A stretch of 64,000 nucleotides of DNA from Candidatus Eiseniibacteriota bacterium (lineage in GTDB: Bacteria > Eisenbacteria > RBG-16-71-46), in NCBI GenBank assembly GCA_013140805.1, contig JABFRW010000033.1, positions 245 through 64,244 on the forward strand, written 5' to 3'. The notes beneath the pieces are model-generated. The model was not told the origin of the DNA. It saw only the letters and a list, made by a program, of their open reading frames with translations, and ran no database searches. The position numbers and the translations under genes are program-made. How positions within the stretch are numbered: position 1 is the stretch's first letter; each line of letters begins with the position of its first letter. This document shows positions 37,822 to 60,354 of this stretch, piece by piece.

Positions 37822-38313
37822 TCAGCGTTCCGGCTTCCACGCCGCGCGCAGCTGGATCAGCACGCAGTAGAGCAGCGCCAGCGCTCCGATCGGGGCGAGG
37901 AAGATTCCGAGTCCGGGATCGCCCTCGTAGTGCTGGATTCCGCCGAGCAGAAAGCCGAGCGGCATCAGCACCGTGCCGGCGACCAACGCGCGCGAGGCGT
38001 GAAGCCGCTGCGTTGCGCCGAGGCTCGGAGCCTCGGCCCAGCGCACGTAGACGAGATTCAGCACCGAGAGCAGCGCGCCGTGAAAGTGTGCGAGCGTCAG
38101 GAACTCGCGACGCAGCGGGTCGAGCAGATAGCCGCCGAGCTTGAAGCCATGCGCGAGCTCGAGCACCAGGCCCAGGCACATCCACGCGAACAGCGAGGTC
38201 CAGCCGAAGCGACGATGAAGCAGGGCGAGCCGCTCCGCGGCCGCACCTTCGGGCCGTTGCTCCTTCGTCGAGGACTCGCCGCGTGGTTCCTTCCTGGCGC
38301 TCATGGGATTCAC
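37822..38313 (-). CDS. Small polytopic membrane protein, translationally coupled to the octaheme cytochrome
   Basis: Four predicted hydrophobic helices with conserved His residues (HGFKLGG, HFHGALL). The start overlaps, or lies within 5 nt of, the cytochrome stop. Confidence 0.55.
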   Translation of the reverse strand: MNPMSARKEPRGESSTKEQRPEGAAAERLALLHRRFGWTSLFAWMCLGLVLELAHGFKLGGYLLDPLRREFLTLAHFHGALLSVLNLVYVRWAEAPSLGATQRLHASRALVAGTVLMPLGFLLGGIQHYEGDPGLGIFLAPIGALALLYCVLIQLRAAWKPER

Positions 38314-40112
38314 TCTCCGATCGAAACCAGATGGTTGCTCTGCCGCGCGATCAGGCTCGTGATGACGTCACGCCTGGGCATGAACTCGGCATCGAGCGGG
38401 ACCGCCGCACCCGGGTGCGAGAGCCGTCGTTTGTCGAGCCCCTGCCACCACGACCACCACGATTGAAGCGCCGCGGTGCGAGCCGCCGGCTCGGCAAGAT
38501 AGTCGAACGGCGGCGACTTCGGAGCCGCCCCGATTGCCGACTCGCCGACCTCCGCACGTGCGCACAACTCGAGCAGCCCCCGATGGGCGAAGTGCCGCAC
38601 CGCGGGGTAGGGGTCCTCCATGGTCAGCAGCAGGAAGGGCACAGCCCACAGCCGCTGCGTGGGGTCCGAGGTGTACGAGCGGGCCTGCGCGAGTGCGTTC
38701 GCCGCCACCGCGCGCTGCACCACGTCGCCGCCGAACAACGAGCGGATGCTCTCTGCAGTCTCGAATGCGCGATCGCTCGGCTCGTCGTCGGGAGGCGGTG
38801 TACCGAACTGTCGCGCGGTCTCTCTCGCGGCCCAGATCGCGGTCCGATCGGTGTGGCACAACGTGCAGGCCTCCGGCATTTCGTTTCTCCACGCCCGCGC
38901 GGGTGCCGGGCTGGTGATGCGGTGGCTCGGGTGCACGGTCAGCAATCCGTAAGTGGTGGGCGGCATGTGGCAGGCGTAGCACTCGCTGCCCGAGCCCGCG
39001 GCCTCGTGCCCGGTGTGCTTCGACACGTTGCGACCGATCTCGGCGTGGCACTGCACGCAGCCGGCATTGCCGCGCATCGCCGGCTGGATCATGCCGCGCG
39101 GATCGCCGCCATGCATGTCGTGGCATGACATGCAGGTCAGGTCGCTCGAGCCGTGGCCCTCGGACGTCAGCAGTCCCTGGTACTCGTAGGCGGTGAGTCG
39201 CGGCGTCCCGTCGCTCCAGAATCGCTGGCTCAGATCGGTGCCGGCGAGTTCGGTGTGCGCGTCGATCGGCGTGGTGAAACGACTCAGGTCGTCGCCGGCC
39301 GTGTAGGGATCGCCGACCGTCATGAACTCGGCGATGCGCTCGCGCGGGTTCGGCAACCGCTGACCGTGGCAGTGGCCGCAGATCTGGATCTGCTGCATGC
39401 GCGGCAGCTCGCGCGGCGATCGGATCGTGGGGTCGCGGTCGCCGAGGTACAACAGGTAGCGCCGGAGCGGATCCCGGTTGCGACGAATGTGCAGATCCGC
39501 TGGACCGTGGCAGGCCTCGCACGCGATGCCCAGTTCGGCGACGCGAGCGTCGAAGGTATCGGTCTCGCGGTTCAGTCTCGGCTGAGCCTTCACGTTGTGG
39601 CAGAAGATGCAGTTGCTGTCCCAGTCGGTTCGATGGGCATTGAACGCGGTGGCGTCGGGATCGAGGAAGCCGCCGTTCAGATGGATCCACCGGCGTTCCT
39701 CGATGTTCCACGCGACCGGCAGGCGGACGTGCCGGTCGCCGACTCGCGTCACGTATTGCTGAATTCGACGCGAGCCGACCGTCATGGCGATCTCGTAGCG
39801 TTCCATGGTGTTCGCGGGAGACAACGTCTCGACGAAGAACCGCTCGCCGTCGCGCGTGAATCGCGACGTGACGCCCTGATAGGTGAGGCTCGCGTTCTCG
39901 AAATCGCCGACCACCGCAGTGGCGCGTGCAGGCTGAGTCATGGTGCGGTGGAAGGTGCGATGCCAGGTCTCGTAGCGCCCCGGGTGGCACATCACGCACT
40001 GCTCCGAGGTCGCATAGGCGACCTGCGGCAGTTCGACCGGCGTGCGCAGCTCGCCGGTGATTCGCGCGCCGATGGCGACCGTCGCTGCGAGGGCCGCGAG
40101 TGCGGCGATCAC
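38310..40112 (-). CDS. Octaheme c-type cytochrome (8 CxxCH) with C-terminal HEAT-like helical region; GTG start
   Basis: CVMCH, CIFCH, CEACH, CGHCH, CMSCH, CVQCH, CYACH and CTLCH. N-terminal signal/anchor IAALAALAATVAIGARITG. Confidence 0.8.
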   Translation of the reverse strand: MIAALAALAATVAIGARITGELRTPVELPQVAYATSEQCVMCHPGRYETWHRTFHRTMTQPARATAVVGDFENASLTYQGVTSRFTRDGERFFVETLSPANTMERYEIAMTVGSRRIQQYVTRVGDRHVRLPVAWNIEERRWIHLNGGFLDPDATAFNAHRTDWDSNCIFCHNVKAQPRLNRETDTFDARVAELGIACEACHGPADLHIRRNRDPLRRYLLYLGDRDPTIRSPRELPRMQQIQICGHCHGQRLPNPRERIAEFMTVGDPYTAGDDLSRFTTPIDAHTELAGTDLSQRFWSDGTPRLTAYEYQGLLTSEGHGSSDLTCMSCHDMHGGDPRGMIQPAMRGNAGCVQCHAEIGRNVSKHTGHEAAGSGSECYACHMPPTTYGLLTVHPSHRITSPAPARAWRNEMPEACTLCHTDRTAIWAARETARQFGTPPPDDEPSDRAFETAESIRSLFGGDVVQRAVAANALAQARSYTSDPTQRLWAVPFLLLTMEDPYPAVRHFAHRGLLELCARAEVGESAIGAAPKSPPFDYLAEPAARTAALQSWWSWWQGLDKRRLSHPGAAVPLDAEFMPRRDVITSLIARQSNHLVSIGE

Positions 40113-41017: not shown

Positions 41018-43477
41018 ATGCATTCGCGATATGACGTTTCCATTCGAAGCGCGCTTCTCACCGTACTGGCGTTCGCGCTCGCCGCCGGCCCCGCACAGGC
41101 GGCGTGGCTCCCCGACGCCTACGTGGGCGGCTTTGGGTTGTCCACCACGACGGCGACCCACGCCAATCCGACCGCCATCGCGGACGGCGCCGGCGGCGTC
41201 ATCGTGGTGTGGCAGGACCAGCGCAATGGCGTCGATTACGACATCTACGCGCAGCGCATCAACGCGCGGGGTGACGCGCTGTGGACGGCGAACGGCGTCG
41301 CGGTGTGCAGCGCGACCAATGCCCAGATCCTTCCGGTCGTCACCTCCGACGGTGCCGGTGGCGCCATCATCGCGTGGCAGGACTTTCGCAATGGCAGCCA
41401 CTACGACGTGTTCGCTCAGCGCGTGAACGCGAACGGCACGACCGCGTGGACCGCCAGCGGCATCAACGTGTGCAACGCCGCCGGGATTCAGGAAGCGCTC
41501 GCCATCATCAGCGACGACGCGGGTGGCGCGATTCTGACCTGGCAGGACCTTCGATCGGGCGGGACCAACGACATCTACGCGCTTCGCGTGGGGCCGACCG
41601 GCACCTCGCTGTGGACCGCGAATGGACGAGCGGTGAGTGTGGCGGGTGGGTCGCAGCTGGCGCCGAGGCTGGCGTCCGACGGCGCCAATGGCGCGATCAT
41701 CAGCTGGCACGACCTGCGCGGCGCCAACTACGACATCTACGCGCAGCGCGTTCCCGCCAGCGGCATCCCGCAGTGGACGGCCGATGGCGTGTCGGTGTGC
41801 AACGCCGCGGGCAATCAGACGTCTTCGATGATCGTCTCCGACTATGTCGGCGGCGCGGTCATCACCTGGGATGACGCGCGCTCCGGCACCTCGGACATCT
41901 ATGCGCAGCGCGTGGGTCCGAACGGGACGACGCTGTGGGTCGCCAACGGCTCGGCGGTCTGCACCGCGACCAATGCGCAGGTCACGCCTTCGATCGCCAC
42001 CGACGGCTCGGGCGGTGCGATCATCGCGTGGACCGACTGGCGCGCGGTGGCCACCAACTCGCAGGACATCTATGCCCAGCGAGTGAACGCGGCAGGATTC
42101 ACGGCATGGACTTCCAACGGCGTGCCGCTCCACACCACCACGACCGGGGCCCAGATCGCCCCGGTGTGCGTGAGCTCGGACGGCCTCGGCGGTGCGATCA
42201 TCTCGTGGGCCGACTCCCGCAGCATGCTCAACTACGACGCCTACGCCCAGCGCGTGGGGCCCAACGGCACCCGCTACTGGAATGACGAAGCGCTGGTGAC
42301 CGGCGCGGTGCTCGATCAGTACGTCATCGCACTCGTGAGCGACGGCGCGCAGGGCGCCTACGCCGTGAGCATCGACAATCGCAATGGCGTGTTCAAGACC
42401 TACGCGCAGAAGCTCAATGCCAGCAGTTCGCTGGGTGACTGCACGCCGCGCATCGTGTCGGTGCGCGACGTTCCGAATGATCAGGGCAGCTTCGTCAACC
42501 TGCGTTTCGATCGCAGCCGGCTGGACCTCCAGATCGACGATAATTTCCAGGTCGATTACACGATCTGGCGCCAGGTCCCGAACGCCGCGGCACTCGCAGC
42601 GCTCAAGGGCGGTGCTCGGCTGCTGGCGGCCGGCGAGCGTGCGGAACGGGGCGGCGCCGATCGCGGGCTGCTGCGAAAGACGGTGGAGATGAACGGCGTC
42701 ACCTATTACTGGGAGCAGTGGGACTGGGTGGATGGTCGCGGCATTCCGAGCTACGGAGCCGTGCTCGAGACCACTTCGGACTCGCTGCCGAGCTCGAATC
42801 CGCGCACGCTGTACATGGTCGAGGCGCAGTCGTACGAGGACGGCGACTACTGGTACTACCAGTCAGCTCCCGACAGCGGCTACTCGGTCGACAATCTGCC
42901 GCCGGGTGCTCCGGGCTCGTTCGCGGCTCAGTACGCCGCGGGCACCACGCAGCTGCACTGGGCGCCGGTCGTGGCACCCGACTTCGCGGGCTACCGGCTC
43001 TATCGCGGCGGCACGCTGACGTTCACTCCCGGCCCCGGCAATCTGGTCCAGGCGGTGTCGGACACCGGCTACACCGACGCTGCGGGCGGGCCGTACGTCT
43101 ACAAGCTCACCGCGGTCGATCTGCACGGCAACGAATCGCCGATCGCGACCGTTGCGCCGACCGGCATCGTCGACGCGCCGCCTGCGGGTCCGGCGGTGTT
43201 CTTCCTGGGCGCGCCGGTTCCGAATCCAGCGCGCGCGAACCTCGGGGTGACGCTGCGCTTCGGGCTTGCCCGGCCGGGCGAGGCGCGAGTGCGCGTGTTC
43301 GATGCACAGGGTCGACTGGTGCGGACACTCGAGAGCGGGCCCCATGCCGCGGGCGAGCATGTGGCGCGCTGGGATGGACGAAACGATCACCACGTACCGC
43401 TCGCTGCGGGGCTCTACTTCGTGAGGCTCGAGGCCGAATCGCGAGTCGCGACCACGCGCGTGACGCTGCTGTGGTGA
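41018..43477 (+). CDS. Secreted repeat protein (paralog of 158-2194 / 2827-5241): 8 x ~50-aa repeats, DVPNDQG module, FN3-like module, C-terminal sorting domain
   Basis: Signal peptide MHSRYDVSIRSALLTVLAFALAAGPAQA. Repeat consensus DGAGGAIIAWQD.R.G..DIYAQRV...G...WT.NGV.VC. C-terminus ...AGLYFVRLEAES.... Confidence 0.8.
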   Translation: MHSRYDVSIRSALLTVLAFALAAGPAQAAWLPDAYVGGFGLSTTTATHANPTAIADGAGGVIVVWQDQRNGVDYDIYAQRINARGDALWTANGVAVCSATNAQILPVVTSDGAGGAIIAWQDFRNGSHYDVFAQRVNANGTTAWTASGINVCNAAGIQEALAIISDDAGGAILTWQDLRSGGTNDIYALRVGPTGTSLWTANGRAVSVAGGSQLAPRLASDGANGAIISWHDLRGANYDIYAQRVPASGIPQWTADGVSVCNAAGNQTSSMIVSDYVGGAVITWDDARSGTSDIYAQRVGPNGTTLWVANGSAVCTATNAQVTPSIATDGSGGAIIAWTDWRAVATNSQDIYAQRVNAAGFTAWTSNGVPLHTTTTGAQIAPVCVSSDGLGGAIISWADSRSMLNYDAYAQRVGPNGTRYWNDEALVTGAVLDQYVIALVSDGAQGAYAVSIDNRNGVFKTYAQKLNASSSLGDCTPRIVSVRDVPNDQGSFVNLRFDRSRLDLQIDDNFQVDYTIWRQVPNAAALAALKGGARLLAAGERAERGGADRGLLRKTVEMNGVTYYWEQWDWVDGRGIPSYGAVLETTSDSLPSSNPRTLYMVEAQSYEDGDYWYYQSAPDSGYSVDNLPPGAPGSFAAQYAAGTTQLHWAPVVAPDFAGYRLYRGGTLTFTPGPGNLVQAVSDTGYTDAAGGPYVYKLTAVDLHGNESPIATVAPTGIVDAPPAGPAVFFLGAPVPNPARANLGVTLRFGLARPGEARVRVFDAQGRLVRTLESGPHAAGEHVARWDGRNDHHVPLAAGLYFVRLEAESRVATTRVTLLW

Positions 43478-43571
43478 ACGCCGCCCGGTAGCTCGAGGAT
43501 TTCGAGCGCAACGCCCCGTCGACCGAGTCGGCGGGGCACTTGCGCATCTCGCGAGCGAGTCGGTTGCGACG

Positions 43572-44294
43572 TCAGGGCGCGATCAGGACCCGGGCGCGCG
43601 AGGTCCCGAGCGTGTCGCCGGAGCGGACCGCGGCCACCTGCACCACGATCGTCTCGCCTGCAGGAAGCGTGAACGGCAGATTGGCGAGTGCCGAGTGGAA
43701 CGAAGTCGTCGACAGTGGGCCGAGCGTTCCGATCTCCTGCAGCTCGGGGGTGAAGATCCGCACCACGTAGCCTTCGGCATCAGAGACGCCGGCCCACTCG
43801 AGGTCGAGCCCGCCGACTCCCAGTTCGGCACGACCGAGCGCGAATTCGGCGATCGCGCGCTCGCCGCGCAGCACCGGCTCGCCGCCACGGGGTGCCGGTG
43901 TCATGGCGAGGCGAGGCCACACCGCGACCCCGCCGAGCACGAGTGCGAGAACCGCGAACGCGAGCGCCGGCCGCAGCGAGGGATGCAGCAGCCGCTCGAG
44001 CCACGAGAGTCCGGTCGCGTTCGCGCTTCGTTTTCCGGAGGTCGCGTCGGCGATCGGACGCGCGGAGGAGCCCGCAATCCCGGTCATCGAAGCGACGACC
44101 TCGTCGAGTCGGGCGGCGGCACGCGCGACGTGATCGGACTGCAGCTCGGAGCCCGGCGAGAGGAACAACCGGTAGCTCTCGAGAAGCGAGGAGCAGCGTG
44201 GACAGTCTCGCGCATGCCGGCGGCGCGGGTCCGACTCCGAAAGGGCGAAGACCTCGGCCAGCGCCTCGGGCTCGAAGCAGTCCTTCGACTTCAT
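43572..44294 (-). CDS. Anti-sigma factor, ZAS-type zinc finger, single TM, periplasmic C-domain
   Basis: AGGGAGGG RBS. The H-x3-C-x2-C motif RHARDCPRC and the TM helix LRPALAFAVLALVLGGVAVW are present. ATGA overlap with the upstream ECF sigma gene. Confidence 0.65.
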   Translation of the reverse strand: MKSKDCFEPEALAEVFALSESDPRRRHARDCPRCSSLLESYRLFLSPGSELQSDHVARAAARLDEVVASMTGIAGSSARPIADATSGKRSANATGLSWLERLLHPSLRPALAFAVLALVLGGVAVWPRLAMTPAPRGGEPVLRGERAIAEFALGRAELGVGGLDLEWAGVSDAEGYVVRIFTPELQEIGTLGPLSTTSFHSALANLPFTLPAGETIVVQVAAVRSGDTLGTSRARVLIAP

Positions 44295-44881
44295 GACACC
44301 GCCCTCCCTGATTCCTCGAGCGCCGCCCGCAATCGCCGCCGCGCCCGCTGCAACAGGGCTCGCGCGCCGGTGGCGTTCTCGAGCCCCATCACCTTCGTGA
44401 TCGATTCGACCGAGAGCCGCTCGATGCATCGCAACCACAGCGCGCGCCGCTCGGCCTCGTCGAGCTTGTCCATCATGAGCTGCCGCAACCGTTCTTCGTC
44501 CTCGGCTCGCTCGTAGGCTGCATCGGGCGCTGCCGCCGGATGCTCGGCGGCGTCGGGGTCGGCGTCCTCATCCACGAGCAACGCCGGTGCCGAGACCGCC
44601 TTGAGACAACAATTCCGCGCAATCACGAACAGCCATGACGAGAACCGCGACCGACCCTCGAACGACGACATCGCGCGATACGCGCGCAGCAGCACGTCCT
44701 GCGTCAGATCCATGGCGCGGTCCGGATCCCGTACGTAGCGGAAACACCACAAGTAGACCTGGCGATGGTAGCGACGCAACAACTCGGAAGCCGCCTCACG
44801 GCTGCCGACACTGTCCGGATCGCGAGCCGCGATCCGCAGCAGTGTTTCGTCATCTCGCTCGCGGGTCGCAGAACCCGTCAT
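44291..44881 (-). CDS. ECF (sigma-70 family group 4) RNA polymerase sigma factor
   Basis: Region 2 (...RYHRQVYLWCFRYVRDPDRAMDLTQDVLLRAYRAMSSF...) and region 4 (...SVESITKVMGLENATGARALLQRARRRLR...) are both present. Confidence 0.8.
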   Translation of the reverse strand: MTGSATRERDDETLLRIAARDPDSVGSREAASELLRRYHRQVYLWCFRYVRDPDRAMDLTQDVLLRAYRAMSSFEGRSRFSSWLFVIARNCCLKAVSAPALLVDEDADPDAAEHPAAAPDAAYERAEDEERLRQLMMDKLDEAERRALWLRCIERLSVESITKVMGLENATGARALLQRARRRLRAALEESGRAVS

Positions 44882-44909
44882 GCAGTGAGAGCCCCCGTGG
44901 GGCCGGAAA

Positions 44910-47714
44910 TCACACCGGGATCCCGGAAAGGCGCCGGCGGTCCCTCGAGGTCCAGGCGAGGAGCAGCGAGAGGAGCGCCGACACCCCGCCAGCATAAGCC
45001 GCAACCCGGTTCGGCAGAAGGGGATGCATTCGGACCGGAACCCCGAGTGCCGCGTCGCCCAGCAGCACGAATCCGGACCAGTAGAACGGGTGGACGGTGC
45101 GCGGATCGGCCCGCACCGAGCGCTGCGCCCGGGCGAGCGCCCGACCGGCATCGTCGCCCAGCGTCAGCCGTTCGTAAAAGCGCCGCACGATGCGGGAGGT
45201 GGCCTGATCGTCGACTGGCCACAGGCTCGCGACCACCGCCGGCGAGCCGGCCGCCAGGAACGCACTCGCGAGGCCTGCGACACCTTCCCCGGAGCGCACT
45301 CGATTGCCGACCGAGGCGCAGCTCGCGAGCACCACGAGATCGGCATCGAGCGAGAGCTTCGCGATCTCACCGGCGGTCAGCATCTCGCCGTCGGCTCCGC
45401 GCAGTCCCGGCAGCCGCGTTTGCCAGGGGCGCAGATCGTCCGGCTGCGTGTGACCCGCGAAGTGAACGATCGCGGTACCCGCCAGATCGGCGACCACCCC
45501 GCCTCGTCCGAGTACGCGTGCCTGATTGAGGTGGGCGCCGATCCACGCCAGCTCGGAGCGCGCGCCCGCGAGCCGAAGTGAAGAGTCGCGAGCGCCGAGT
45601 GCCACCACGCCGCGTTGCCGCACCTGCGTGCGACCGCGCGCGATGCGCCGCAGATCGGCGAGCAGCGAGGCGGCCGGCAGGACGCTCACTTCGCGCTGGG
45701 CGAGCAGCGGCTCCGGGCCGGTCCCGAGATCGACCATCAAGGCTCCGACCGGAACCAGATGCAGCGCATCGTCCCCGATCACGAATACCCGCGACTGGGT
45801 CGCGAGCAGATCGCGCACCGGATCGAGCAGCCGGGCGCCGAGTGTCGCGAGCACCCGACGGGTCGCGAGGGAATCGAGTCGCACCTCGCCCGCAGGCTGT
45901 GAAATGACGTCGCGCGCCAGTGCGAGCTGACGCCACAGCCCGCGCGGCGGCAACGTGACCAGCCGGCAGGAGTCTCGCGTCACCGCGAACAGCCACGCAT
46001 GATCCGCGGCGATGAAGAAGTCCAGCAGCAGCTCACCGGGCGCCAGGGTTTCGAGCTGCAGCGTCGCGAGCTTGACCGGCTGGAGCCCCGCGCGGTCCGC
46101 GCGGCGGCTCGGACGCGGGCCGAAGGTGCGTTCGATCAGCGTGCGGGCCTTGAATCGCTGCAGGCGGTCGAAGGCGAGCTCCGTCCGACGGGCCGCGCTG
46201 CCTGACTCGCCCACGATGGTCAGCGCGAGCCACTCGCTCGCCAGCGTGCGCGATTCGATCGCCAGGGTCTCCCGCCACTCGGCGGCCGAACTGCGGCTGC
46301 GCCCCGACTCCCACGACGTGACCGCGGAATCGAGCAACGCCAGTGCCGCCACCGTGTGGCCGCGATCGCGTTCGACGCGGGCCAGCATCGTGAGGGCATT
46401 CGCGATGACGAAGCCCTCGGCGATCGTGCGGCCCCCGGTGAGTGCCCGTTCGGACCAGCGTCGACACGCGGCTGCGTGACCGAGACGGTACTCGGCCTCG
46501 GCGAGCACCAGATGCTGCCACGCGAGAAACGCGATCCCGATCTTGCCTTCGAACGAGTTGAGATGGCGTGCGATCAGTGCACGCGCGCTGTCGGGCTGGT
46601 TCATGGCGAGGAACGTCATCCCCAGTCGCGTGACCGCGATCGCGCGCACGTCGATCTGCGCCGACGGCTCGTCCATCGCGGCGCTGAATGCGGTCGCGGC
46701 CTCGCGCAGTCGCCCCTGCTCGGCTCGCACCCGGCCGATCTGGCTCAGCACCATCGGAATCTGCGGCCGAAGCCCGTTGTCGCGGCATGCGGTCAGCAAC
46801 GTGTCGAGCAGCGCGAGCGCTTCGTTCGATCGGCCCAGCGTGGCGAGCGAAGAGGCGAGATCGGCACCCGGGTACGCCGCCTGCGAGAACAGTCCGAGCC
46901 GTCGATAGGTTTCGTACGAGGCACGCTGGTATTCAGCGGCGAGCGACAGATCGCCGCCGGTGGTCTCGATCATCGCAAGGTTGCCGAGCGCGTGGGCGAT
47001 ATAGGCCGACTGCACATGGATGCGGCTCAGCTCGAGCGCGCGCAGGTTCGAGCTCCGCGCGGCTCGATAGTTGCCGAGGCCGAATTCGGAACGTCCGAGT
47101 CCGAGGCGCGCGAGGATCTCGCCATTCGGCTCATCGAGCGCCGCCAGCGAATCGGCGGCGCGCGCATATTCGTCGCGGGCCCGCCGGAAGTCGCCGTCGA
47201 TCACCGCGTACCAGCCGAACGAAATGTGTGCGCGTGCGTCGTGGACTCGATCGCCGATGCTGCGGGCCAGACGCTGCATGCGCTCGGCCACCGGACGGGC
47301 CTGGCTGATGCGACCCTGCTGCTGGAGCGCGAAATCTTTCCAGCGCAGCGCATTCACCAGCGTGAGCGTGTCGCGAAGTCGTTCCGCGAGCTGCACCGCT
47401 TCGTCGATGGCGGCGGCTCCGAGCGTCACGTCACCGCGGCGAATGCGAAGCTGGCCCTCGCGCCGCAGCAACCACAGCACGGCGATCGAGTCGCGCCCCG
47501 CGCGGGCGCTGCGCAGGTGGGGGGCGAGCAGCGTCAGCACCTGCTCATGAGCGCCGGCTTCGTAAAGCGAGTCGGTATGGCGTGCGACTGATTCGAGCCC
47601 ACGCCCGGCAGGGGCAGGCCTCGCGTCCGCGGCCGCATGGGCGCCGGTCGGCATGGCTCCGGCGACCAGCAGCGCGATGGCGAGAGAGAGCGGGAGGGCC
47701 ACGCGAGCAGTCAC
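44910..47714 (-). CDS. Secreted TPR-repeat protein with C-terminal CHAT (caspase-like) peptidase domain and C-terminal hydrophobic anchor
   Basis: Signal peptide MTARVALPLSLAIALLVAGAMPTGAHA. Multiple TPR-like helical repeats. The CHAT dyad context is IVHFAGHT ... LVVLASCAS. Terminal hydrophobic stretch AAYAGGVSALLSLLLAW. Confidence 0.8.
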   Translation of the reverse strand: MTARVALPLSLAIALLVAGAMPTGAHAAADARPAPAGRGLESVARHTDSLYEAGAHEQVLTLLAPHLRSARAGRDSIAVLWLLRREGQLRIRRGDVTLGAAAIDEAVQLAERLRDTLTLVNALRWKDFALQQQGRISQARPVAERMQRLARSIGDRVHDARAHISFGWYAVIDGDFRRARDEYARAADSLAALDEPNGEILARLGLGRSEFGLGNYRAARSSNLRALELSRIHVQSAYIAHALGNLAMIETTGGDLSLAAEYQRASYETYRRLGLFSQAAYPGADLASSLATLGRSNEALALLDTLLTACRDNGLRPQIPMVLSQIGRVRAEQGRLREAATAFSAAMDEPSAQIDVRAIAVTRLGMTFLAMNQPDSARALIARHLNSFEGKIGIAFLAWQHLVLAEAEYRLGHAAACRRWSERALTGGRTIAEGFVIANALTMLARVERDRGHTVAALALLDSAVTSWESGRSRSSAAEWRETLAIESRTLASEWLALTIVGESGSAARRTELAFDRLQRFKARTLIERTFGPRPSRRADRAGLQPVKLATLQLETLAPGELLLDFFIAADHAWLFAVTRDSCRLVTLPPRGLWRQLALARDVISQPAGEVRLDSLATRRVLATLGARLLDPVRDLLATQSRVFVIGDDALHLVPVGALMVDLGTGPEPLLAQREVSVLPAASLLADLRRIARGRTQVRQRGVVALGARDSSLRLAGARSELAWIGAHLNQARVLGRGGVVADLAGTAIVHFAGHTQPDDLRPWQTRLPGLRGADGEMLTAGEIAKLSLDADLVVLASCASVGNRVRSGEGVAGLASAFLAAGSPAVVASLWPVDDQATSRIVRRFYERLTLGDDAGRALARAQRSVRADPRTVHPFYWSGFVLLGDAALGVPVRMHPLLPNRVAAYAGGVSALLSLLLAWTSRDRRRLSGIPV

Positions 47715-47790
47715 CCCACAATGCTACGGACCGCGCTGCTCGCGGCCAAGCGCCTTCCCGATCAAATCCGGTCCCGGATTCGCTCCGTAG

Positions 47791-48617
47791 CCCCGACGTG
47801 GTGGCTCCCGGGGTGCCCCGGCCCAGGAGCAGATCTGGGTCCTGACCTCGAGCAACAACCTCATCAACTTCATGAGCAGCAGCCCGGCCACGTTTTCGTC
47901 GCGCCCGATCACCGGCATGGCAGCCGGCGAGGTCGCACTGGCGATCGACTTCCGGGCGGCGGCGCCGCTGAGCCGTCTCTACGCCATCACCAACTTCGGG
48001 CAGCTGTACCTGATCAGCAATCCGAGCACCGGAGCTGCGGTCGCGGTCGGCCCGGGCGGCATCGCGATCAACGGCACCGAGGTCGGTCTCGACTTCAATC
48101 CGACCGTCGATCGCATCCGCCTGATCACCGACAACGAGCAGAACCTGCGCCTGCACCCGGATCTCGGAACCGTCGTGGCGACGGATCTGAGTCTCGCCTT
48201 CGCCGGCTCCGACGTGAACGCGGGCTCGAATCCGCAGGCCACCGGCGCCGCCTACACCAACAGCTTCGCGGGTGCGACCACGACGACGCTCTACGACGTG
48301 GACGCCAGCCTCGATGTGCTGGTCACGCAGCTGCCGCCGAACAACGGCACGCTCAACACCGTGGGCTCGCTGGGCGCGAACGTTGACACCCTGAACGGCT
48401 TCGACATCTCGGGCGCCACGACCACCGCCTACGCGGCCTTCCACGTGCCGGTGACCTGAACAGCGGCTTCTACACCCTCAATCTGGCGACCGGCGCGGCG
48501 ACGTTCATCGGCTGGATCGCCTGCAACGAGCCGCTGCGCGGCCTGAGCGTCGACAACAACAATCCGACGCCGACGCAGAACTCGACGTGGGGGCAGCTCA
48601 AGTCGCTCTACCGGTAG
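47791..48617 (+). pseudogene. DUF4394-family secreted protein gene with a -1 frameshift near 48455 and no intact signal-peptide start
   Basis: Frame 1 encodes ...RPITGMAAGEVALAIDFRAA...LYLISNPSTGAAVAVG...FNPTVDRIRLITDNEQNLRLHPDLG...TTTTLYDVD.... The family-typical tail (LNSGFYTLNLATGAATFIGWIACNEPLRGLSVD...) continues in another frame after ccggtgacctga. A 1-nt insertion (ccgggtgacctg) would restore a single frame. Confidence 0.55.
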
Positions 48618-48695: not shown

Positions 48696-50414
48696 TCAGC
48701 CCCTCGTCATCGCGATGATCGCGAACACCAGCACCAGCAACGCCTCGCCGGCGATGAAGCCCGAGGACAGCGGCAGGTTGAACGCGTCCTCGCTGCTGGG
48801 ATGCGACTTCTTCCACGCCCACTGTGCGATTCCGCCGAGCACCATGGGCATCACCGCGAGGCCCGGCACCAGCATGCCGATGCCGACGCCGGTCGGCGAC
48901 GGCAGGAAGCGGCGATGCTTCGGCTCGAAGACCGTGATGATCGCACCGACGACGACGGCAACGAGCAGCGCCTGGAAGCAGCCGGCCGGAAGCGCCGAGA
49001 AGCCCTGATTGAGCAGCTCGGCGAAGCCCGCCCACTTGACGCTGATCGGAGACGACAGGCCCTCGCCGCCGACGCCGTACTTGGCCTTGAGCGCCGGGTA
49101 GACCAGCGAGACCGCGATCGCTCCGACCGGCACCGCGAGGAGCTGCATGATCGTGAGATTGCGGTTCGATGAGCCGACGATCTTGCCGGCTTTGTAGTCC
49201 TGCATCAGGTGCTCGCCGTTGGCGGCGATGGTGCCGGACATCCCGGAGCCGATCATGTTGATGGCCATGTTGCCGGGCGCGAGTACGGCGAATACCGCCT
49301 GCATGAGGTTCGCCATCGCGCTGATCGGGGCCCAGTTGGTTTCGCCGAGTACGCGCGTACCCACCAGCATCAGGATCATCGAGAGCACCAGCGAGACCAG
49401 CGACAGCCACAGCGGGAAGCCGAGGCTGATCCATTGCACGAGGAACAGCGCGAGGCTCGCCACGATGACGCCCGTCACCACCCACTTGAGCGGAAAGTCG
49501 GTGCTCCCGACCTGGGCGGTGCGCAGGTTCACGAACGTTTTCGCGACCAGCTTCCACTTGAGCAGCAGTGCCGTGATCCCGCCGGCGACGAGCAATCCGG
49601 TCGCCGGCCACATCACCCAGCGCAGCACCAGCGGAAAGGTCTGCTCGGCCACGATGCCGCGGGAGACCAGCATCGGCGGGGCGATCACCCACGACAACAG
49701 CATGCCGAGTCCCATCGAGAGCGCGATGCGCGGTCCCACCAGCATGCCGGAGCCGAAGCTCAGGAGACTCACTTCGGAGCCCATGCGTAGCGCCTCGCCG
49801 CTGGGACCGAAGCTGATGTGGTCCGGCAGCTTTTTGACGCCGTCTCTCAGCCACGCGGCCAGTGCGGAGAGCCCGATGCCGATGCCGAGTGCGGTGACGC
49901 GTGGACCCGCTTCCTTCGGGCCCTGATCCAGCACCAGCAGCGTCTCGCCGGCCGCGGTGCCGTCGGCGAAGGTGAGGTTTTCCTCGTCGATGAAGTGCCG
50001 GCGCAGCGGCACGGCGAGCAGCACGCCGACGATTCCGGCGAGGCTCAGCCACAGGAAGGTCTGCAGCACGGTCAGATGGAGCGAGAAGCCCAGCTCGGGC
50101 TTCTGATTCAGCATGTCGATGGCGGCCAGCACCACGCACATGAATCCCGCCTGCCCGGCGGTGGTGCCCGCGGTCTGCACCATGTTGTTCTCCCACCGCG
50201 TTCCGCGCCCGCCGACGACCAGACCGATCACCGACAGCGCGATGTAGCCGAAGAACGCGCTCACCACCGAGATGTTCGGGCCATAGCCGAGCTTGAGCAC
50301 GACGTAGGGATACGAGCCGGCAATCAGGGCCGCGACCACCAGGGCCACGGTGATCGAGCGAAAGGTGAGTTCGCGATGCGGCGCGCCAGTGGCGTCGTCG
50401 GCGTGGGCGTCCAT
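48696..50414 (-). CDS. OPT family oligopeptide transporter
   Basis: 572-aa polytopic membrane protein with OPT-like sequence throughout. GGAGG RBS before ATG 50414. The upstream extension in the track is unsupported. Confidence 0.8.
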   Translation of the reverse strand: MDAHADDATGAPHRELTFRSITVALVVAALIAGSYPYVVLKLGYGPNISVVSAFFGYIALSVIGLVVGGRGTRWENNMVQTAGTTAGQAGFMCVVLAAIDMLNQKPELGFSLHLTVLQTFLWLSLAGIVGVLLAVPLRRHFIDEENLTFADGTAAGETLLVLDQGPKEAGPRVTALGIGIGLSALAAWLRDGVKKLPDHISFGPSGEALRMGSEVSLLSFGSGMLVGPRIALSMGLGMLLSWVIAPPMLVSRGIVAEQTFPLVLRWVMWPATGLLVAGGITALLLKWKLVAKTFVNLRTAQVGSTDFPLKWVVTGVIVASLALFLVQWISLGFPLWLSLVSLVLSMILMLVGTRVLGETNWAPISAMANLMQAVFAVLAPGNMAINMIGSGMSGTIAANGEHLMQDYKAGKIVGSSNRNLTIMQLLAVPVGAIAVSLVYPALKAKYGVGGEGLSSPISVKWAGFAELLNQGFSALPAGCFQALLVAVVVGAIITVFEPKHRRFLPSPTGVGIGMLVPGLAVMPMVLGGIAQWAWKKSHPSSEDAFNLPLSSGFIAGEALLVLVFAIIAMTRG

Positions 50415-50551
50415 TCGGCCTCCGAGGGTGGGAACGTAGAGGCCGGAGACCTTAGCGCAGGCTCCGCTCGTCGTCATTCGGGAATCGAGCGCCCCTCGCG
50501 CGTCATTCCGTGCTTGACGGCTGCCCGCCGGCGCACGCAGTGTGACCCGCC

Positions 50552-51904
50552 ATGCGCTTTCCCGATCTGCTCGCGACTCGGCCGGGTCGCATGGCCGCAT
50601 TCTTCTTCCTCTACATGACCGAGGGCATTCCCCTCGGTTTCACGGCCACCGCGATCGCCACTCAGATGCGCCGCCAGGGCCTCGGCCCGGCCGAGATCGG
50701 GGCGTTCGTCGCCTCGCTCTACCTGCCGTGGGCATTCAAGTGGGCGACCGGGCCGTTCGTCGACGTGATCGCCTCGGATCGGCTCGGGCGCCGACGCGGC
50801 TGGATCCTCATCATGCAGTTGCTGATGGTGGCGACGCTGCTGATCGCGTTCCCGGTCGACTACGTGAAGAACCTGCAGTTCTTCACGGTGCTCATCTTCA
50901 TCCACAACCTGTTCGCGGCCACCATGGACGTCGCGATCGACGCACTCGCGGTCAACGTCCTGCCCGAGGCGGAGCGTGGTGCCGCGAACGGCTTCATGTT
51001 CGGCGGCGCCTATATCGGCCAGGCGGTCGGCGGTGCCGGCGTGCTGTTCCTGGTGCCGCATCTGGGCTTCCCGCCGACCTTCTTCGTGGTCGCCGCCACC
51101 ATCCTCCTGGTCACGGTGTTCGTGGTGCTGCCGTTGCGCGAGCCACCAGGTCCGCCGCGCCCGGCGGTGATCGGCAGCAAGCTCGTCGCGATCGGCACCG
51201 AGATCGGACAGTTCGCCAAGGACGCCTTCAGCGCCTTCATCGGCAGCCGGGGTGCGTTCGTGGGACTGCTGTTCGCGCTGCTGCCGGGCGGCGCCTATGC
51301 GCTCGGTCTCGCGCTGCAATCGAATCTCGCGGTCGAGCTGGGCTTGAACGACACGCAGGTGGGCTTCATCAATCTGTGGTCGACCGTGATCTCGGCGGTG
51401 TTCTGCGTCGCCGGCGGGTGGCTCTCGGATCGCTTCGGCCGCCGCATCACGCTCGCGTGGACGATGGCCGCGACGGTGCTGCCGACCCTCTATCTCGCCT
51501 ACGTGATGCATCAACAGCACTGGATCATGCCGGTGCCGCTCGATGCCGCGAATCGCGCGGTCCCGAGTGCGGTGCTGGTCGGAACCTTCTGGGCGACAGT
51601 GCTGATCTACAACGTGTTCCAGGGTCTTTACTACGGCATCCGCACGGCGCTGTTCATGGACGTCACCACGCCTCGAGTGGCGGCGACTCAGTTCACCGCC
51701 TACATGGCGCTCATGAATCTCGCAATCTCGTTCAGCGCGCAGTGGCAGGGCTGGGCGGTCGAGCGATTCGGGTATCCGAAGACGCTCGCCGCCGATTGCG
51801 TGATCGGACTCGTGTGTCTGGCGTGCCTGCCGTTCATGGGCGCGGTCAAGAAACGCATGGACGCGGGACCGGGTGCTGCGATTCCCGAGGCGATCGCGCC
51901 CTAG
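50552..51904 (+). CDS. MFS transporter (AmpG/PAT-like)
   Basis: 12-TM profile with an MFS signature region around GRRRGWIL. Confidence 0.75.
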   Translation: MRFPDLLATRPGRMAAFFFLYMTEGIPLGFTATAIATQMRRQGLGPAEIGAFVASLYLPWAFKWATGPFVDVIASDRLGRRRGWILIMQLLMVATLLIAFPVDYVKNLQFFTVLIFIHNLFAATMDVAIDALAVNVLPEAERGAANGFMFGGAYIGQAVGGAGVLFLVPHLGFPPTFFVVAATILLVTVFVVLPLREPPGPPRPAVIGSKLVAIGTEIGQFAKDAFSAFIGSRGAFVGLLFALLPGGAYALGLALQSNLAVELGLNDTQVGFINLWSTVISAVFCVAGGWLSDRFGRRITLAWTMAATVLPTLYLAYVMHQQHWIMPVPLDAANRAVPSAVLVGTFWATVLIYNVFQGLYYGIRTALFMDVTTPRVAATQFTAYMALMNLAISFSAQWQGWAVERFGYPKTLAADCVIGLVCLACLPFMGAVKKRMDAGPGAAIPEAIAP

Positions 51905-57437: not shown

Positions 57438-57582
57438 GGCGGCGGGGCTCGGGGCTGACCCGATTGCCGGTCTCTCGTGTGACTCGCGGCGAATTGAGGC
57501 GTCTTTACGGTGTGACCCACGTGCTCCGAACGGGCCCCGACGGGCCGGCCACGGAGTGATCCCCCACCTCGGAGGCTTCATC

Positions 57583-58236
57583 ATGTCGCGGTTCGACCCT
57601 CGTTTCGCCGCCCACGTTCTCGGCGTCCTCGCTCTGGCCCTGTTCGCACTCCCCGGCATCGCGATGGCCCAGCGCGGGATGTCCGAACTGTCCGGGCTCG
57701 GAGGCATGCCGTCCACGCGCCCGATCGTGTTCGGCATCGGTGGCGGCATTGCGATGCCCTTGAACGAGGCGGGCGACGCGCTCGATCGCGGCTTCAACGG
57801 CAATGCCTACGTGCGATTCCAGCCCGCGATGCTGCCGTTCGGCTTCGGCGTGAACGTCTCATTCTCCAAGTTCGACCTGTCGGATGCCGAGGTCACGAGC
57901 GGAGTACCGAGTCCCGGCGCGAGCCCGATCGGCACCAGCCAGATGCTCGCGGGTCTCGCCGATCTCAAGTTCGACCTCATCAAAGGCCCGGTTCGCCCCT
58001 ACGTCCTGCTGGGGCTCGGCGCCTACAACCTGAGCACCGACCTCGAGGGTGCGAGCACCGAGTCGGTGTCGGAGACCCGCTTCGGCGTGAACGGCGGTGC
58101 CGGGCTCTCGATCCAGATCGGGCCGATGCGCCTGTGGGGCCAGGGCCGCGTCGACAACATGTACACGGAAGAGGGCGGCCTGGTGGATACCAAGTCGATT
58201 CAGGTCGTCCCGGTCACGTTCGGGTTGGAGTTCTAA
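57583..58236 (+). CDS. Outer-membrane beta-barrel protein (OmpA-barrel/opacity-porin-like)
   Basis: GGAGG RBS. Signal peptide MSRFDPRFAAHVLGVLALALFALPGIAMA. Alternating amphipathic strands. C-terminal F. Confidence 0.65.
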   Translation: MSRFDPRFAAHVLGVLALALFALPGIAMAQRGMSELSGLGGMPSTRPIVFGIGGGIAMPLNEAGDALDRGFNGNAYVRFQPAMLPFGFGVNVSFSKFDLSDAEVTSGVPSPGASPIGTSQMLAGLADLKFDLIKGPVRPYVLLGLGAYNLSTDLEGASTESVSETRFGVNGGAGLSIQIGPMRLWGQGRVDNMYTEEGGLVDTKSIQVVPVTFGLEF

Positions 58237-58278: not shown

Positions 58279-60354
58279 ATGCCTGGCATGCCGCCGTTCG
58301 TCGTCTGGCTCGTCGTTGCGGCGGGTCTCGCGCTCTGGAATCACCGCTTCGCGCTCGCCGTGGAACGGCGCGTCGGCGCGGTGCCGTTCTTCGCAACCGC
58401 GCAGCGGGCCGGGTGGATCTCGGGCCTCGCGTTCATGAGCTGGCTCATGATCACGATTCCGGGCGTGATGCGCATGCTCATGCAGCGCGGTATTCCGGAC
58501 TCGCACGCTCCGTCGCTGGGGCTGCTCGCGGTGGTGGCGCCGCCGGTCGTGTTCGTGGCGCTCAACGGACTGCTGGTGCAGGCCGTCGCGCGCCGGGCGC
58601 GCATGACGGCCTGGAGTGCTCGCGAGGCGCTCGAGGATGCGATCACGCTGGTGGTCGGCGCGCTGTGCCCGACCGCGCTGATCGGTCTCGCGATCGAAGC
58701 CACGCGCGCCTACCGACTGCGCGCGGCACTGCTGCTCGCGGTGACCGCGATCGCGGTCACGCTGGTGCTGGCGTTGCGGCGCCATCGACTGCACGGCCTT
58801 CTGCCGCATGCCGTGATGAGCGGAGAGCTGCGCGATCGGGTGTTCGCGCTCGCCGCGCTCGCCGGGGTCAAATTGCAGCAGCTCCACGTGGTGCCGTTGC
58901 GCAGCTTTCGGATCGCCAATGCGTTCGCGGTGCAGGGCGATCGCGTGATGCTCACGGACGTGCTGCTCGGCGCGCTGTCACGCGAAGAGGTCGACGCCGT
59001 ACTGGCGCACGAGATGGCGCACTTGAAGCGCCGCGACCCCGACCGTCTGCAGCGCGTGATGGTGATCGGGATCACGGCGCTGGTGATGGCGCCGATGCTG
59101 TTGCGCGACCTGGTGCCCGGGTGGGTGTGGATCGCTGCTCCGATCGGGGGCTTCTTCGCGCTCCTCGCGCACCATCGGGCGATGGAGTACGCGACCGACG
59201 CCGAAGCGGTGAAGCTCGGTGCCGATCCGCGCGCGCTGATCCTCGGCCTGGTGCGCCTCGGACAGCTGGCGCAGATGCCGGTGCGATGGTCCCGGTGGCT
59301 CGAGCTCGCGCTCACGCACCCTTCGACCGAGCGGCGGGCGATGCGACTCGTCGCGAGCTATCGCCTCGACGCCGGCGCCATGCGCGCGGCTCTCGATGCG
59401 CCTCCGCCGCTCGGGCCCTGCTACGAGATGCCTGCGGTGCTCGACGAGAGACGCGCGTTCGGCCCCGCGTTCAAGCGCGGCCTCATGCAGCGCATCTCGC
59501 TCGGTCTGCTGCTGGCGCCGCCGCTCGCGGCCACCACCGTGGTCGCGGTTGCGGGGTGGCTCGATCCGGTCGCGCGCCCGATCGGCTTCGTTGCCGCCAC
59601 GATTGCGGCGTGGCTGGCGTTTCAGTGGGTGGCGCACGCGATCGTGCCGCGCTCGCTCGCGCGACTCGGGGACCCGGCCGAGCGGCGCGTCGGGCTGAGC
59701 CCGTCGCACACCTATCGACTGTTCGACGAACTCTCGATCTGGGACCTCGGCTGCGTGCGGCTGGAGCAGGACCGACTGGTCTACCGCGGCGAGGAGACTT
59801 CGTTCGCGCTCACTCGCGAACACGTTCGGGAGGTGTGGTTCGAGCGCGGGCCGGGCTGGATTCCGACCGGAGTGCTGCGCGTGCGGTGGGAAGGGTCGGA
59901 GGGTGCCGGCGGCATCTTCGGGCTCGATCCGATCGCGGGCGTGGGCGGGCGCCTGGGTGGGCGCGCCGCACGCGCGCTGCTCGCGGAAATCGAAGCGTGG
60001 CGCGGGGGCAGCACGGACGTGGTGCCCCCGCCCGCGGATGCGACATCGAACACCGCAGCGTCCGCGCACGCCGCCCCGCTCGGCGACCCGCCACGCTTCG
60101 CGGTCACGAGCCAGCCGCTGCGTGCAGCGCTCGAGCCGCGTCGGCTCGCCATGACCTGGCTGCTGCTTCTGATCGCCGCGGTGTCGCTCGCCGCCCTGAT
60201 CGGACTCACGCCGCTACCCACGCGACCGGGCTGGCTGGACCTCATCGCGGCATTGACGCTCGCGTATGCACTGCATGTCGCGCCGCTCGCTGCCTGGCGT
60301 GAAACGGCTGCTCCCGAGGCGCCGGCTTCGGACGCCGCGCGCCGCGCCGCTTGA
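58279..60354 (+). CDS. M48 family membrane metalloprotease (HtpX/Ste24-like) with ~350-aa C-terminal extension and terminal TM segment
   Basis: HEMAHLKRRD (HExxH) sits within a polytopic N-domain. The 691-aa product is about twice the typical HtpX length. Confidence 0.75.
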   Translation: MPGMPPFVVWLVVAAGLALWNHRFALAVERRVGAVPFFATAQRAGWISGLAFMSWLMITIPGVMRMLMQRGIPDSHAPSLGLLAVVAPPVVFVALNGLLVQAVARRARMTAWSAREALEDAITLVVGALCPTALIGLAIEATRAYRLRAALLLAVTAIAVTLVLALRRHRLHGLLPHAVMSGELRDRVFALAALAGVKLQQLHVVPLRSFRIANAFAVQGDRVMLTDVLLGALSREEVDAVLAHEMAHLKRRDPDRLQRVMVIGITALVMAPMLLRDLVPGWVWIAAPIGGFFALLAHHRAMEYATDAEAVKLGADPRALILGLVRLGQLAQMPVRWSRWLELALTHPSTERRAMRLVASYRLDAGAMRAALDAPPPLGPCYEMPAVLDERRAFGPAFKRGLMQRISLGLLLAPPLAATTVVAVAGWLDPVARPIGFVAATIAAWLAFQWVAHAIVPRSLARLGDPAERRVGLSPSHTYRLFDELSIWDLGCVRLEQDRLVYRGEETSFALTREHVREVWFERGPGWIPTGVLRVRWEGSEGAGGIFGLDPIAGVGGRLGGRAARALLAEIEAWRGGSTDVVPPPADATSNTAASAHAAPLGDPPRFAVTSQPLRAALEPRRLAMTWLLLLIAAVSLAALIGLTPLPTRPGWLDLIAALTLAYALHVAPLAAWRETAAPEAPASDAARRAA

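Follow-up and report, generated by a model that had tools for sequence, protein, structure and literature searches.

Among the modes of signal transduction in bacteria, extracytoplasmic function (ECF) sigma factors rank as the third major one, and only for a handful of ECF types is it known how the signal is passed to the anti-sigma factor. The stretch of DNA analysed here (64,000 nt, hereafter the window) comes from a metagenome-assembled genome (MAG) of Candidatus Eisenbacteria and has a G+C content of 65-72%. Tightly packed on its minus strand lie, in this order, genes for a protein with tetratricopeptide repeats and a CHAT domain (TPR-CHAT), an ECF sigma factor and a single-pass anti-sigma factor. 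Comparative data support the view that these genes constitute a conserved functional module, which may act as a split version of the DdvA-type anti-sigma system of Myxococcus xanthus. The three genes are as follows.

44910 to 47714, minus strand: TPR-CHAT gene (open reading frame (ORF) of 934 aa from GTG at 47714)
44291 to 44881, minus strand: ECF sigma factor gene (196 aa, ATG at 44881; Pfam and NCBIfam)
43572 to 44294, minus strand: single-pass anti-sigma factor gene (240 aa; alignments and AlphaFold2 (AF2))

The stop codon of the CHAT gene (44912-44910) is separated from the sigma ATG by 28 nt, and the anti-sigma ATG (44294) shares an ATGA with the TGA of the sigma gene (GTCATGAAG); the close packing, the gap and the overlap are thus as described in the first-pass annotation of this DNA, which was made from the sequence alone. 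No terminator-like site was found between the CHAT and sigma genes, so transcription may read through from the former into the latter. The NCBI start of the CHAT protein is the GTG at 47702, four codons later, giving a protein of 930 aa, and a database protein of a Candidatus Eisenbacteria MAG is 100% identical to the window protein.

The sigma factor matched Sigma70_r2 (2.9e-17), Sigma70_r4_2 (5e-5) and TIGR02937 (5e-25; 88 bits against a cutoff of 42.9), with the sigma-2 domain at aa 34-96 and the sigma-4 domain at aa 135-184, and its closest solved relatives are AlgU, RpoE, SigE and SigW. No NCBIfam equivalog scored above its cutoff. By these profile matches, the protein is an ECF (group IV) sigma-70 factor, in agreement with the first-pass assignment of an ECF sigma gene 28 bp downstream of the CHAT gene.

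The first gene product contains the following features.

47634 to 47711, minus strand: predicted Sec-type signal peptide (aa 2-27, ending in AHA and followed by A; hydropathy)
46122 to 47600, minus strand: TPR superhelix of about 12 helix pairs (aa ~39-531; AF2 and Pfam)
45048 to 46070, minus strand: CHAT (caspase-fold) domain (aa ~549-889; Pfam, AF2 and profile)
45450 to 45452, minus strand: catalytic His755, the latter of the two His in IVHFAGHT (aligned to DdvA H862 and the His of the Csx29 'CHG')
45318 to 45320, minus strand: catalytic Cys799 in LVVLASCAS (aligned to DdvA C907)
44913 to 45005, minus strand: C-terminal transmembrane (TM) helix (aa 904-921) and Arg-rich tail (aa 922-934; hydropathy and AF2)

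In Pfam, the ORF matched CHAT (PF12770; 5.8e-48, aa 620-887, model positions 2-289 of 289), TPR_12 and TPR_MalT. The AF2 model, built from 46 sequences (predicted local distance difference test score (pLDDT) 88, predicted template modelling score 0.83), consists of a TPR superhelix, a caspase-fold domain with three helices early in it (model residues 589-635) and a terminal helix, and its best Foldseek matches were human separase, DdvA (8RW5/8ROT) and the Csx29 craspases. A PDB search with the full-length protein or profile was flooded by TPR proteins, and only the profile of the CHAT domain alone was informative: DdvA (8rot_B) ranked first (E 1.1e-11), followed by Csx29 and then separase. The protein falls short of the Csx29 family model NF041237, against which it scored 10 bits (cutoff 300) at E 0.27. 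The motifs IVHFAGHT and LVVLASCAS, in which the first-pass annotation had placed a His/Cys dyad, occupy aa 749-756 and 793-801, respectively. By profile alignment, both dyad residues are intact at the canonical positions, and the catalytic His is assigned to H755 rather than H751 because it is H755 that aligns with H862 of DdvA and with the His of the Csx29 'CHG'.

The N-terminal signal-like segment (MTARVALPLSLAIALLVAGAMPTGAHA, followed by A; Kyte-Doolittle maximum 2.4) has a hydrophobic counterpart in all complete CHAT orthologs. At the other end, a hydrophobic segment (VAAYAGGVSALLSLLLAW, aa 904-921, hydropathy 1.9) forms a helix in the AF2 model and is followed by the Arg-rich tail TSRDRRRLSGIPV (aa 922-934); this type of ending was found in 13 of the 21 CHAT orthologs encoded next to a sigma gene. 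The protein is accordingly predicted to be extracytoplasmic and anchored in the membrane at its periplasmic face, which bears out, at the level of prediction, the signal peptide and the membrane tethering that had been read from the sequence at first.

The anti-sigma factor contains four features of note.

44193 to 44216, minus strand: zinc-type motif H27-x3-C31-x2-C34, together with C6 at 44277-44279 (conserved in the family)
43905 to 43976, minus strand: TM helix (aa 107-130; Kyte-Doolittle 2.1, AF2 helix 105-130)
43860 to 43874, minus strand: juxtamembrane VLRGE motif (Arg143 at 43866-43868, candidate P1 residue of a site-1 cut)
43581 to 43850, minus strand: periplasmic beta-sandwich resembling fibronectin type III (FN3) domains (aa 149-238; AF2 pLDDT >90)

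No Pfam or NCBIfam model matched this protein; at E<=10, Pfam returned DUF6131 alone (0.099), and zf-HC2 (PF13490) did not score although the HxxxCxxC motif is present. The motif, the upstream Cys, the helical N-terminal domain and the position after the sigma gene nevertheless place it in the class I/ZAS type, as first annotated. In the AF2 model, generated from 12 sequences (database proteins; mean pLDDT 79), four N-terminal helices (9-16, 23-30, 32-45 and 53-71) are followed by a disordered cytoplasmic linker (aa 77-96), the TM helix, a low-confidence periplasmic linker (aa 132-141) and the sandwich. All of the top PDB matches of the sandwich by Foldseek were FN3 domains (TM-score up to 0.74), and FN3 chains were also matched, weakly, by hidden Markov model (HMM), suggesting that the periplasmic domain is FN3-like. 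The predicted topology agrees with the periplasmic C-terminal domain proposed earlier.

An exhaustive profile search among representatives of 50%-identity clusters (E<=1e-30) identified 594 members of this anti-sigma family; among the best 150, the majority are full-length and approximately 230 aa long, and all named members are annotated as 'hypothetical'. When conservation was counted over 141 full-length representatives, R143 was retained in all 141, as was W167, the core Trp of the FN3 domain. The zinc ligands are less strictly conserved than R143 (C31 and C34 in 139, C6 in 135 and H27 in 129 of the 141). R143 lies within L-R-G, approximately 13 residues past the TM helix and beside the low-confidence linker, and is a candidate cleavage site (P1). 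A few orthologs (loci L025, L026, L032 and L048 and the first pair of L033) retain R143, the FN3 domain and the TM helix but have lost the zinc ligands, and zinc or redox sensing is therefore not essential to the family.

To survey the arrangement, metagenome contigs were scanned with a three-sequence sigma alignment, which yielded 80 loci, and the six-frame ORFs of these loci were searched with custom HMMs for the CHAT domain, the anti-sigma factor and the sigma factor. Forty-two loci, with 37-64% identity to the window sigma factor, form its sigma group, and the remaining 38 (<=33%) served as an out-group. A genome-contig scan with the anti-sigma alignment was less productive, returning only three loci, one of which was spurious. 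Nearly all 42 group loci encode a member of the anti-sigma family directly downstream of the sigma gene. In 30 of them, enough upstream sequence is available to be informative, and in 20 of these 30, a CHAT gene lies immediately upstream of the sigma gene on the same strand, whereas none of the 38 out-group loci has a CHAT gene anywhere (Fisher p ~4e-10). Independent, precomputed gene calls with Pfam gave the same CHAT, sigma, anti-sigma order for L091 and L092, and the gene for the best CHAT homolog (P0002, 36% identity) runs with an ATGA overlap into the N-terminus of the same sigma factor. The synteny on which the first-pass annotation had staked its proposal is therefore conserved within the group. 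Two more distant TPR-CHAT homologs, P0011 and P0003, have no sigma gene nearby, which indicates that the link to sigma is specific to a clade rather than general for TPR-CHAT proteins.

The same three parts also occur in other orders. In L009, from a second Eisenbacteria MAG, and, by the precomputed gene calls, on the contig of P0098, the order is sigma, anti-sigma and secreted TPR-CHAT, and L033 (3078-8332) encodes sigma, anti-sigma, CHAT, sigma and anti-sigma. L040 (249-2425) contains two sigma/anti-sigma pairs in succession, a tandem duplication like that in L033. In L009 (9880-10010), the sigma frame overruns its expected end, losing register after ...GARGLLQTA, and the first Cys is missing from the N-terminus of the anti-sigma factor, probably owing to a frameshift introduced by an assembly error at the sigma/anti-sigma junction.

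In two proteins, P0007 (1245 aa) and P0008 (1317 aa), the anti-sigma factor and TPR-CHAT are fused: a ZAS domain with HxxxCxxC, a TM helix, an HRG motif, an FN3 signature, TPRs and a CHAT domain follow one another in a single chain, and a sigma gene lies upstream of each. They are among the closest relatives of the window protein by CHAT domain (33-35% identity). With filters off, the anti-sigma profile matched their N-termini at E 3e-12 and 2e-9, respectively, and the RG of the window VLRGE aligned to that of their HRG. On the basis of these two alignments, the window pair is best described as the split counterpart of the fused proteins, and the order found in L009 and on the P0098 contig is the expected product of a simple fission or fusion. 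We regard the fusion and the gene orders as strong comparative evidence for a direct functional link between the anti-sigma factor and CHAT, a link that is probably physical as well. Together, the synteny, the reordered loci with the same three parts and the Rosetta-stone fusion support a conserved functional module. That the three genes are neighbours by chance, with no functional tie, would fit the lack of an adjoining CHAT gene in one-third of the group loci; this idea is strongly disfavoured, indeed scarcely credible, given the contrast of 20/30 with 0/38 loci, the retention of the trio under rearrangement and the gene fusion. A distantly related locus adds to the observations on gene pairs: on the P0009 contig (JGI 3300041966), the gene for a distant 830-aa TPR-CHAT protein overlaps by 4 nt the gene before it, whose 373-aa product matches zf-HC2 faintly, which suggests that pairing of an anti-sigma factor with TPR-CHAT also occurs outside the FN3-type family.

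Two copies of a promoter-like motif are located in the window.

44886 to 44914, minus strand: ECF-type promoter-like motif TGTGAT-N16-GCTCTCA (position weight matrix (PWM) score 21.5 bits)
57478 to 57506, plus strand: second copy, TGTGAC-N16-CGTCTTT (19.4 bits; tentative regulon promoter)

The consensus yGTGAY-N16-(C/G)GTCyCA was found directly upstream of the sigma start in almost every member of the sigma group (~36 loci), with or without a CHAT gene upstream, and out-group sigma genes do not have it at that position. In the window, as in six other loci, the -35-like element includes the TGA stop codon of CHAT, and in four loci the motif lies within the end of the CHAT coding sequence. In the window, 4 nt separate the end of the motif from the sigma ATG (44881); this distance recurs in ~10 loci and therefore implies that the sigma mRNA is leaderless, or nearly so, in this ECF group. 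With a PWM built from 36 sites, the 64-kb window gave only two hits of >=19 bits, one at the sigma gene and one at 57478-57506, where 0.025 such hits per shuffle would be expected. The second site is followed by genes for a beta-barrel outer-membrane protein (OMP; 57583-58236; OMP_b-brl 6.6e-9) and a 691-aa M48 peptidase (58279-60354; Peptidase_M48 1.2e-20), a possible regulon of the sigma factor with a flavour of envelope quality control. In L091, L092, L020, L042 and L035, a second copy of the motif is present just past the anti-sigma gene and before the next gene, and it carries the same locus-specific -10 variant as the sigma-proximal copy. Shared variants of this kind are what would be expected of promoters co-evolving with their sigma factor, and we infer from them that the motif is read by the sigma factor itself.

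The sigma/anti-sigma pair would accordingly be autoregulated, with the CHAT gene putatively outside that loop. As the first-pass annotation had suggested, an ECF-type -35/-10 was sought upstream of 47714, i.e. before the CHAT gene, and none was found; the conserved motif precedes the sigma gene instead. The PWM gave no match of >=9 bits over 47715-48000, an expectation-maximization search over 21 regions upstream of CHAT genes found nothing consistent, and a strict sigma-70 promoter scan of 43300-48000 was empty. A TTGGCC-N17-TAGCAT sequence just before the CHAT GTG (8/12 matches) is weak and was not relied on.

We propose that the three genes encode one signalling module, i.e. a split, three-polypeptide version of the DdvA-type TPR-CHAT ECF anti-sigma system that acts in a DegS/RseA-like manner, and assign to this proposal a probability of about 0.5. 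The ECF sigma factor would be kept at the inner membrane by the single-pass anti-sigma factor (ZAS domain, TM helix, LRG linker and FN3-like domain), and the TPR-CHAT protein would be exported via its signal peptide and, in this genome, tethered at the periplasmic face by its C-terminal TM helix. The TPR superhelix would detect a periplasmic ligand or protein and dock the FN3 domain, upon which the His755/Cys799 site would cut the anti-sigma factor in trans in the juxtamembrane linker, most likely after Arg143, as the site-1 cut. An RseP-type site-2 protease and then cytoplasmic proteases would complete the degradation and free the sigma factor, which would transcribe a leaderless sigma/anti-sigma mRNA from the TGTGAY-N16-CGTCyCA motif at the 3' end of the CHAT gene. 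Free sigma would also act at a few target promoters, for which the OMP/M48-peptidase pair is the candidate here, and CHAT would stay outside this positive autoregulatory loop.

The proteolytic step draws support from separase, a TPR-CHAT relative that cleaves after Arg (PMC11506125), taken together with the invariance of R143 beside the linker; DdvA deprived of its TPR-CHAT part is degraded by RseP (PMC11506125). An Arg specificity of the window protein is suggested by invariant R143 alone. The more specific and more general statement that a widespread, unannotated three-component ECF family, which comprises several hundred or more 50%-identity clusters, uses a tethered, trans-acting TPR-CHAT protein as an Arg-specific site-1 protease on the LRG linker is put forward more tentatively, as somewhat doubtful.

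Several observations weigh against this mechanism. Approximately one-third of the group loci, including L006/L008, L012, L022, L026, L028 and L036, keep the sigma/anti-sigma pair and R143 with no adjoining CHAT gene, and L006/L008, from the Eisenbacteria MAG GCA_044451485.1, is the locus of the closest anti-sigma ortholog; in such genomes, CHAT is either encoded elsewhere or dispensable. Eight of the 21 sigma-adjacent CHAT orthologs end directly after the CHAT domain, with no C-terminal TM helix. The conservation of R143 could be structural instead, e.g. by capping the FN3 domain, and self-cleavage of DdvA itself was not observed (PMC11506125). Lastly, the catalytic His is not universal. Over 46 wider homologs, the first His of IVHFAGHT (H751) and the Cys799 position are invariant (46/46 each), whereas the catalytic position is His in 37, Tyr in eight (P0007, P0008, P0014, P0017, P0024, P0025, P0047 and P0061) and Asn in one (P0019); among sigma-adjacent orthologs, Cys is found in 20/20 and His in 16/17, the exception being Asp in L029 (3-698). 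The Tyr/Asn subclade, which keeps Cys and the upstream His, may consist of pseudo-proteases or use a non-canonical dyad, and since Tyr, Asn or Asp replaces the catalytic His in these proteins, the CHAT module of some members may not be a conventional protease.

These replacements are the best argument for the main rival of our proposal, in which the CHAT fold is a ligand- or partner-binding module and TPR-CHAT acts as a non-proteolytic sensor or co-anti-sigma factor, much as RseB does on RseA: it would bind FN3 and shield the anti-sigma factor from, or expose it to, another site-1 protease, or pass on a conformational signal. Both fused proteins have Tyr in place of the catalytic His, as do six others, with Asn in one more and Asp in L029; the active site of DdvA is described as both incomplete and in a resting state, and no cleavage was seen (PMC11506125); and a Rosetta-stone fusion indicates interaction, not catalysis. 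The standalone proteins point the other way. His and Cys are both present in the window protein, the dyad is retained in 16/17 standalone orthologs, with Cys kept throughout (46/46), and this retention in sigma-linked CHAT proteins argues for selection on catalysis; in addition, an invariant Arg in an exposed linker resembles the substrate of a clan-CD protease. On balance, we consider a purely non-proteolytic sensor unlikely, although it ranks above the other alternatives. Regulated proteolysis or a sensor role is the most economical reading of the locus, and of the regulated-proteolysis module first suggested for this locus, the conserved module, the dyad and the predicted topology have stood, whereas cleavage of the anti-sigma factor is itself inferred, with Tyr for His in the fused relatives.

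A conserved fourth gene was looked for, and only neighbours specific to sub-clades were found, none of them in the window. A cassette comes after the triad in L091 (5632-11837), L092 (6012-10486) and L020 (2019-4304) and on the P0098 contig; it encodes a conserved secreted protein of ~750 aa of no known family, one or two Peptidase_C10 (streptopain-like) proteins and a small FlgD_ig protein; FG-GAP proteins are the other neighbours of this sub-clade-specific kind. Directly downstream of the window module and convergent with the anti-sigma gene, an 819-aa secreted protein is encoded (41018-43477, plus strand), in which ~10 repeats ending in 'D(I/V)YAQRV' precede a C-terminal FlgD_ig domain (9e-12). 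FlgD_ig-tailed or FG-GAP proteins also adjoin the triad in L025, L033, L042 and L047, a recurrence that is probably due to the abundance of such tails in these lineages.

Such neighbours raise the question of whether CHAT has other substrates, i.e. secreted or envelope proteins such as the FlgD_ig-tagged or C10 proteins, and whether the sigma pair monitors or accompanies it in a shared pathway. The succession of triad and cassette on those four contigs, the sigma-type motif in front of the cassette with the same locus-specific -10 variant and the convergent FlgD_ig-tailed protein of the window are all in keeping with this. The cassette is found neither in the window nor in most loci, however, the fusion of the anti-sigma factor to TPR-CHAT is hard to explain without direct interaction, and CHAT has no sigma-type promoter and hence, by that criterion, is not a member of the regulon. 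We judge this explanation improbable.

The remaining neighbours, i.e. a 600-aa multihaem cytochrome (38310-40112, minus strand; Paired_CXXCH and cytochrome c7/c552-like matches), a divergently transcribed DUF4394 protein (47872-48459, plus strand; 3e-62) and, further out, an OPT transporter (48696-50600), have no obvious tie to the module. Scans of the window found no tRNA, Rfam or CRISPR feature. The last result bears on whether the locus is a DdvS/DdvA-like switch of an anti-phage defence island that senses phage at the envelope, which is conceivable because DdvA, the closest characterised CHAT relative, controls an island of CBASS (cyclic-oligonucleotide-based anti-phage signalling) and CRISPR type (PMC11506125). 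PADLOC, run on the three proteins and their neighbours, is negative for the locus, its matches being limited to a generic TPR one and, in the tail of a Cas10 model, a weak one of sigma-like type; the sigma factor resembles AlgU, RpoE and SigW more closely than DdvS; an OMP and an M48 peptidase are the candidate targets; and even in myxobacteria, DdvA-like pairs often lie away from defence genes (PMC11506125). A defence switch is thus very improbable, and this candidate was set aside.

We did not find, in the literature searched, an ECF sigma/anti-sigma pair described as linked to a standalone gene for a periplasmic TPR-CHAT protein, nor an FN3-type ZAS anti-sigma factor with an invariant LRG motif, and the main text of the ECF classification (Casas-Pastor 2021) does not mention CHAT. 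The role suggested for CHAT, which the first-pass annotation had set apart from the classical ECF activation mechanisms, has precedents in DdvA (PMC11506125) and Craspase (PMC10028731). In 2024, a caspase-like TPR-CHAT part was proposed to serve the fused protein DdvA as both sensor and protease (PMC11506125); that proposal could not be demonstrated, since the signal was unknown and enzyme and substrate form one chain. The module described here separates the enzyme, a TPR-CHAT protein with an intact dyad, from its candidate substrate, a small FN3-type anti-sigma factor with an exposed invariant Arg, and its promoter motif offers a defined read-out. With enzyme, substrate and read-out separate, the hypothesis of CHAT activation can be put to a direct test in vitro and in a heterologous host.

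If the broader reading with an Arg-specific site-1 protease is true, it would represent a new and widespread route of ECF sigma activation and the first tractable split enzyme/substrate system for the CHAT-driven proteolysis that was proposed, and never observed, for DdvA. Should CHAT turn out not to cut the anti-sigma factor, a new periplasmic sensor of ECF signals is nonetheless defined by the conserved triad and its fused form. In addition, a sizeable unannotated protein family has been uncovered (the 594 anti-sigma representatives), and this kind of DdvA-like system is extended from Myxococcota to a different, uncultured phylum.

Three known systems are comparable with this module. In the envelope-stress pathway of Escherichia coli (RpoE-RseA-DegS-RseP; summarised in PMC10028731), a periplasmic protease, anchored in the membrane and bearing a sensor domain for peptides or ligands, makes the site-1 cut in a single-pass anti-sigma factor and site-2 proteolysis follows. 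The logic proposed here is the same, with an anchored periplasmic protease that carries a sensor domain and a single-pass anti-sigma factor; the window sigma factor is RpoE/AlgU-like, and the OMP and the BepA-type M48 peptidase that are its candidate targets also have an envelope flavour. The components differ: the enzyme here is a clan-CD cysteine protease with TPRs, whereas DegS belongs to the S1 serine proteases and carries a PDZ domain; the anti-sigma factor is of the ZAS/FN3 type, unlike RseA, and no RseB was found here. In the window, the gene for the protease adjoins the sigma operon, whereas degS is unlinked to it in E. coli.

In Craspase, the type III-E TPR-CHAT protein Csx29 cleaves Csx30, an inhibitor of the ECF-like CASP-sigma (PMC10028731). 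The fold is similar, and the proposed principle, relief of an ECF-type sigma factor by a trans cut of its inhibitor, is shared. Craspase, however, is cytoplasmic, RNA-guided and bound to Cas7-11, whereas no Cas genes are present here, and Csx30 is unrelated to the window anti-sigma factor.

The closest parallel is DdvS-DdvA. DdvA of M. xanthus is a ZAS-TM-TPR-CHAT anti-sigma factor that has been proposed to be its own site-1 protease (PMC11506125; see also PMC6061681; structures PDB 8ROT/8RW5), and the DdvA-like proteins reported in that study come from Myxococcota and a single Comamonas only (PMC11506125). Both systems combine an ECF sigma factor, a single-pass CHCC-type anti-sigma factor and a TPR-CHAT of the separase/craspase type with a His-Cys dyad, predicted here to be periplasmic, and for both a CHAT site-1 cut in the juxtamembrane linker, followed by RseP, is proposed. 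Here, in Eisenbacteria and related uncultured bacteria, TPR-CHAT is a separate protein with its own predicted signal peptide and C-terminal TM helix, so that cleavage would take place in trans; the anti-sigma factor has an FN3-like domain and an invariant LRG motif, neither of which has been reported for DdvA; the sigma factor is not specifically DdvS-like; and PADLOC found no defence island nearby in the window. The fused P0007 and P0008 share with the window genes the same parts in the same order, the RG after the TM helix, the FN3 signature and the upstream sigma gene, and differ in being single chains with Tyr for the catalytic His and no C-terminal TM helix. The locus, with two separate genes, thus lacks the single-polypeptide feature of DdvA, yet plausibly works like DdvA.

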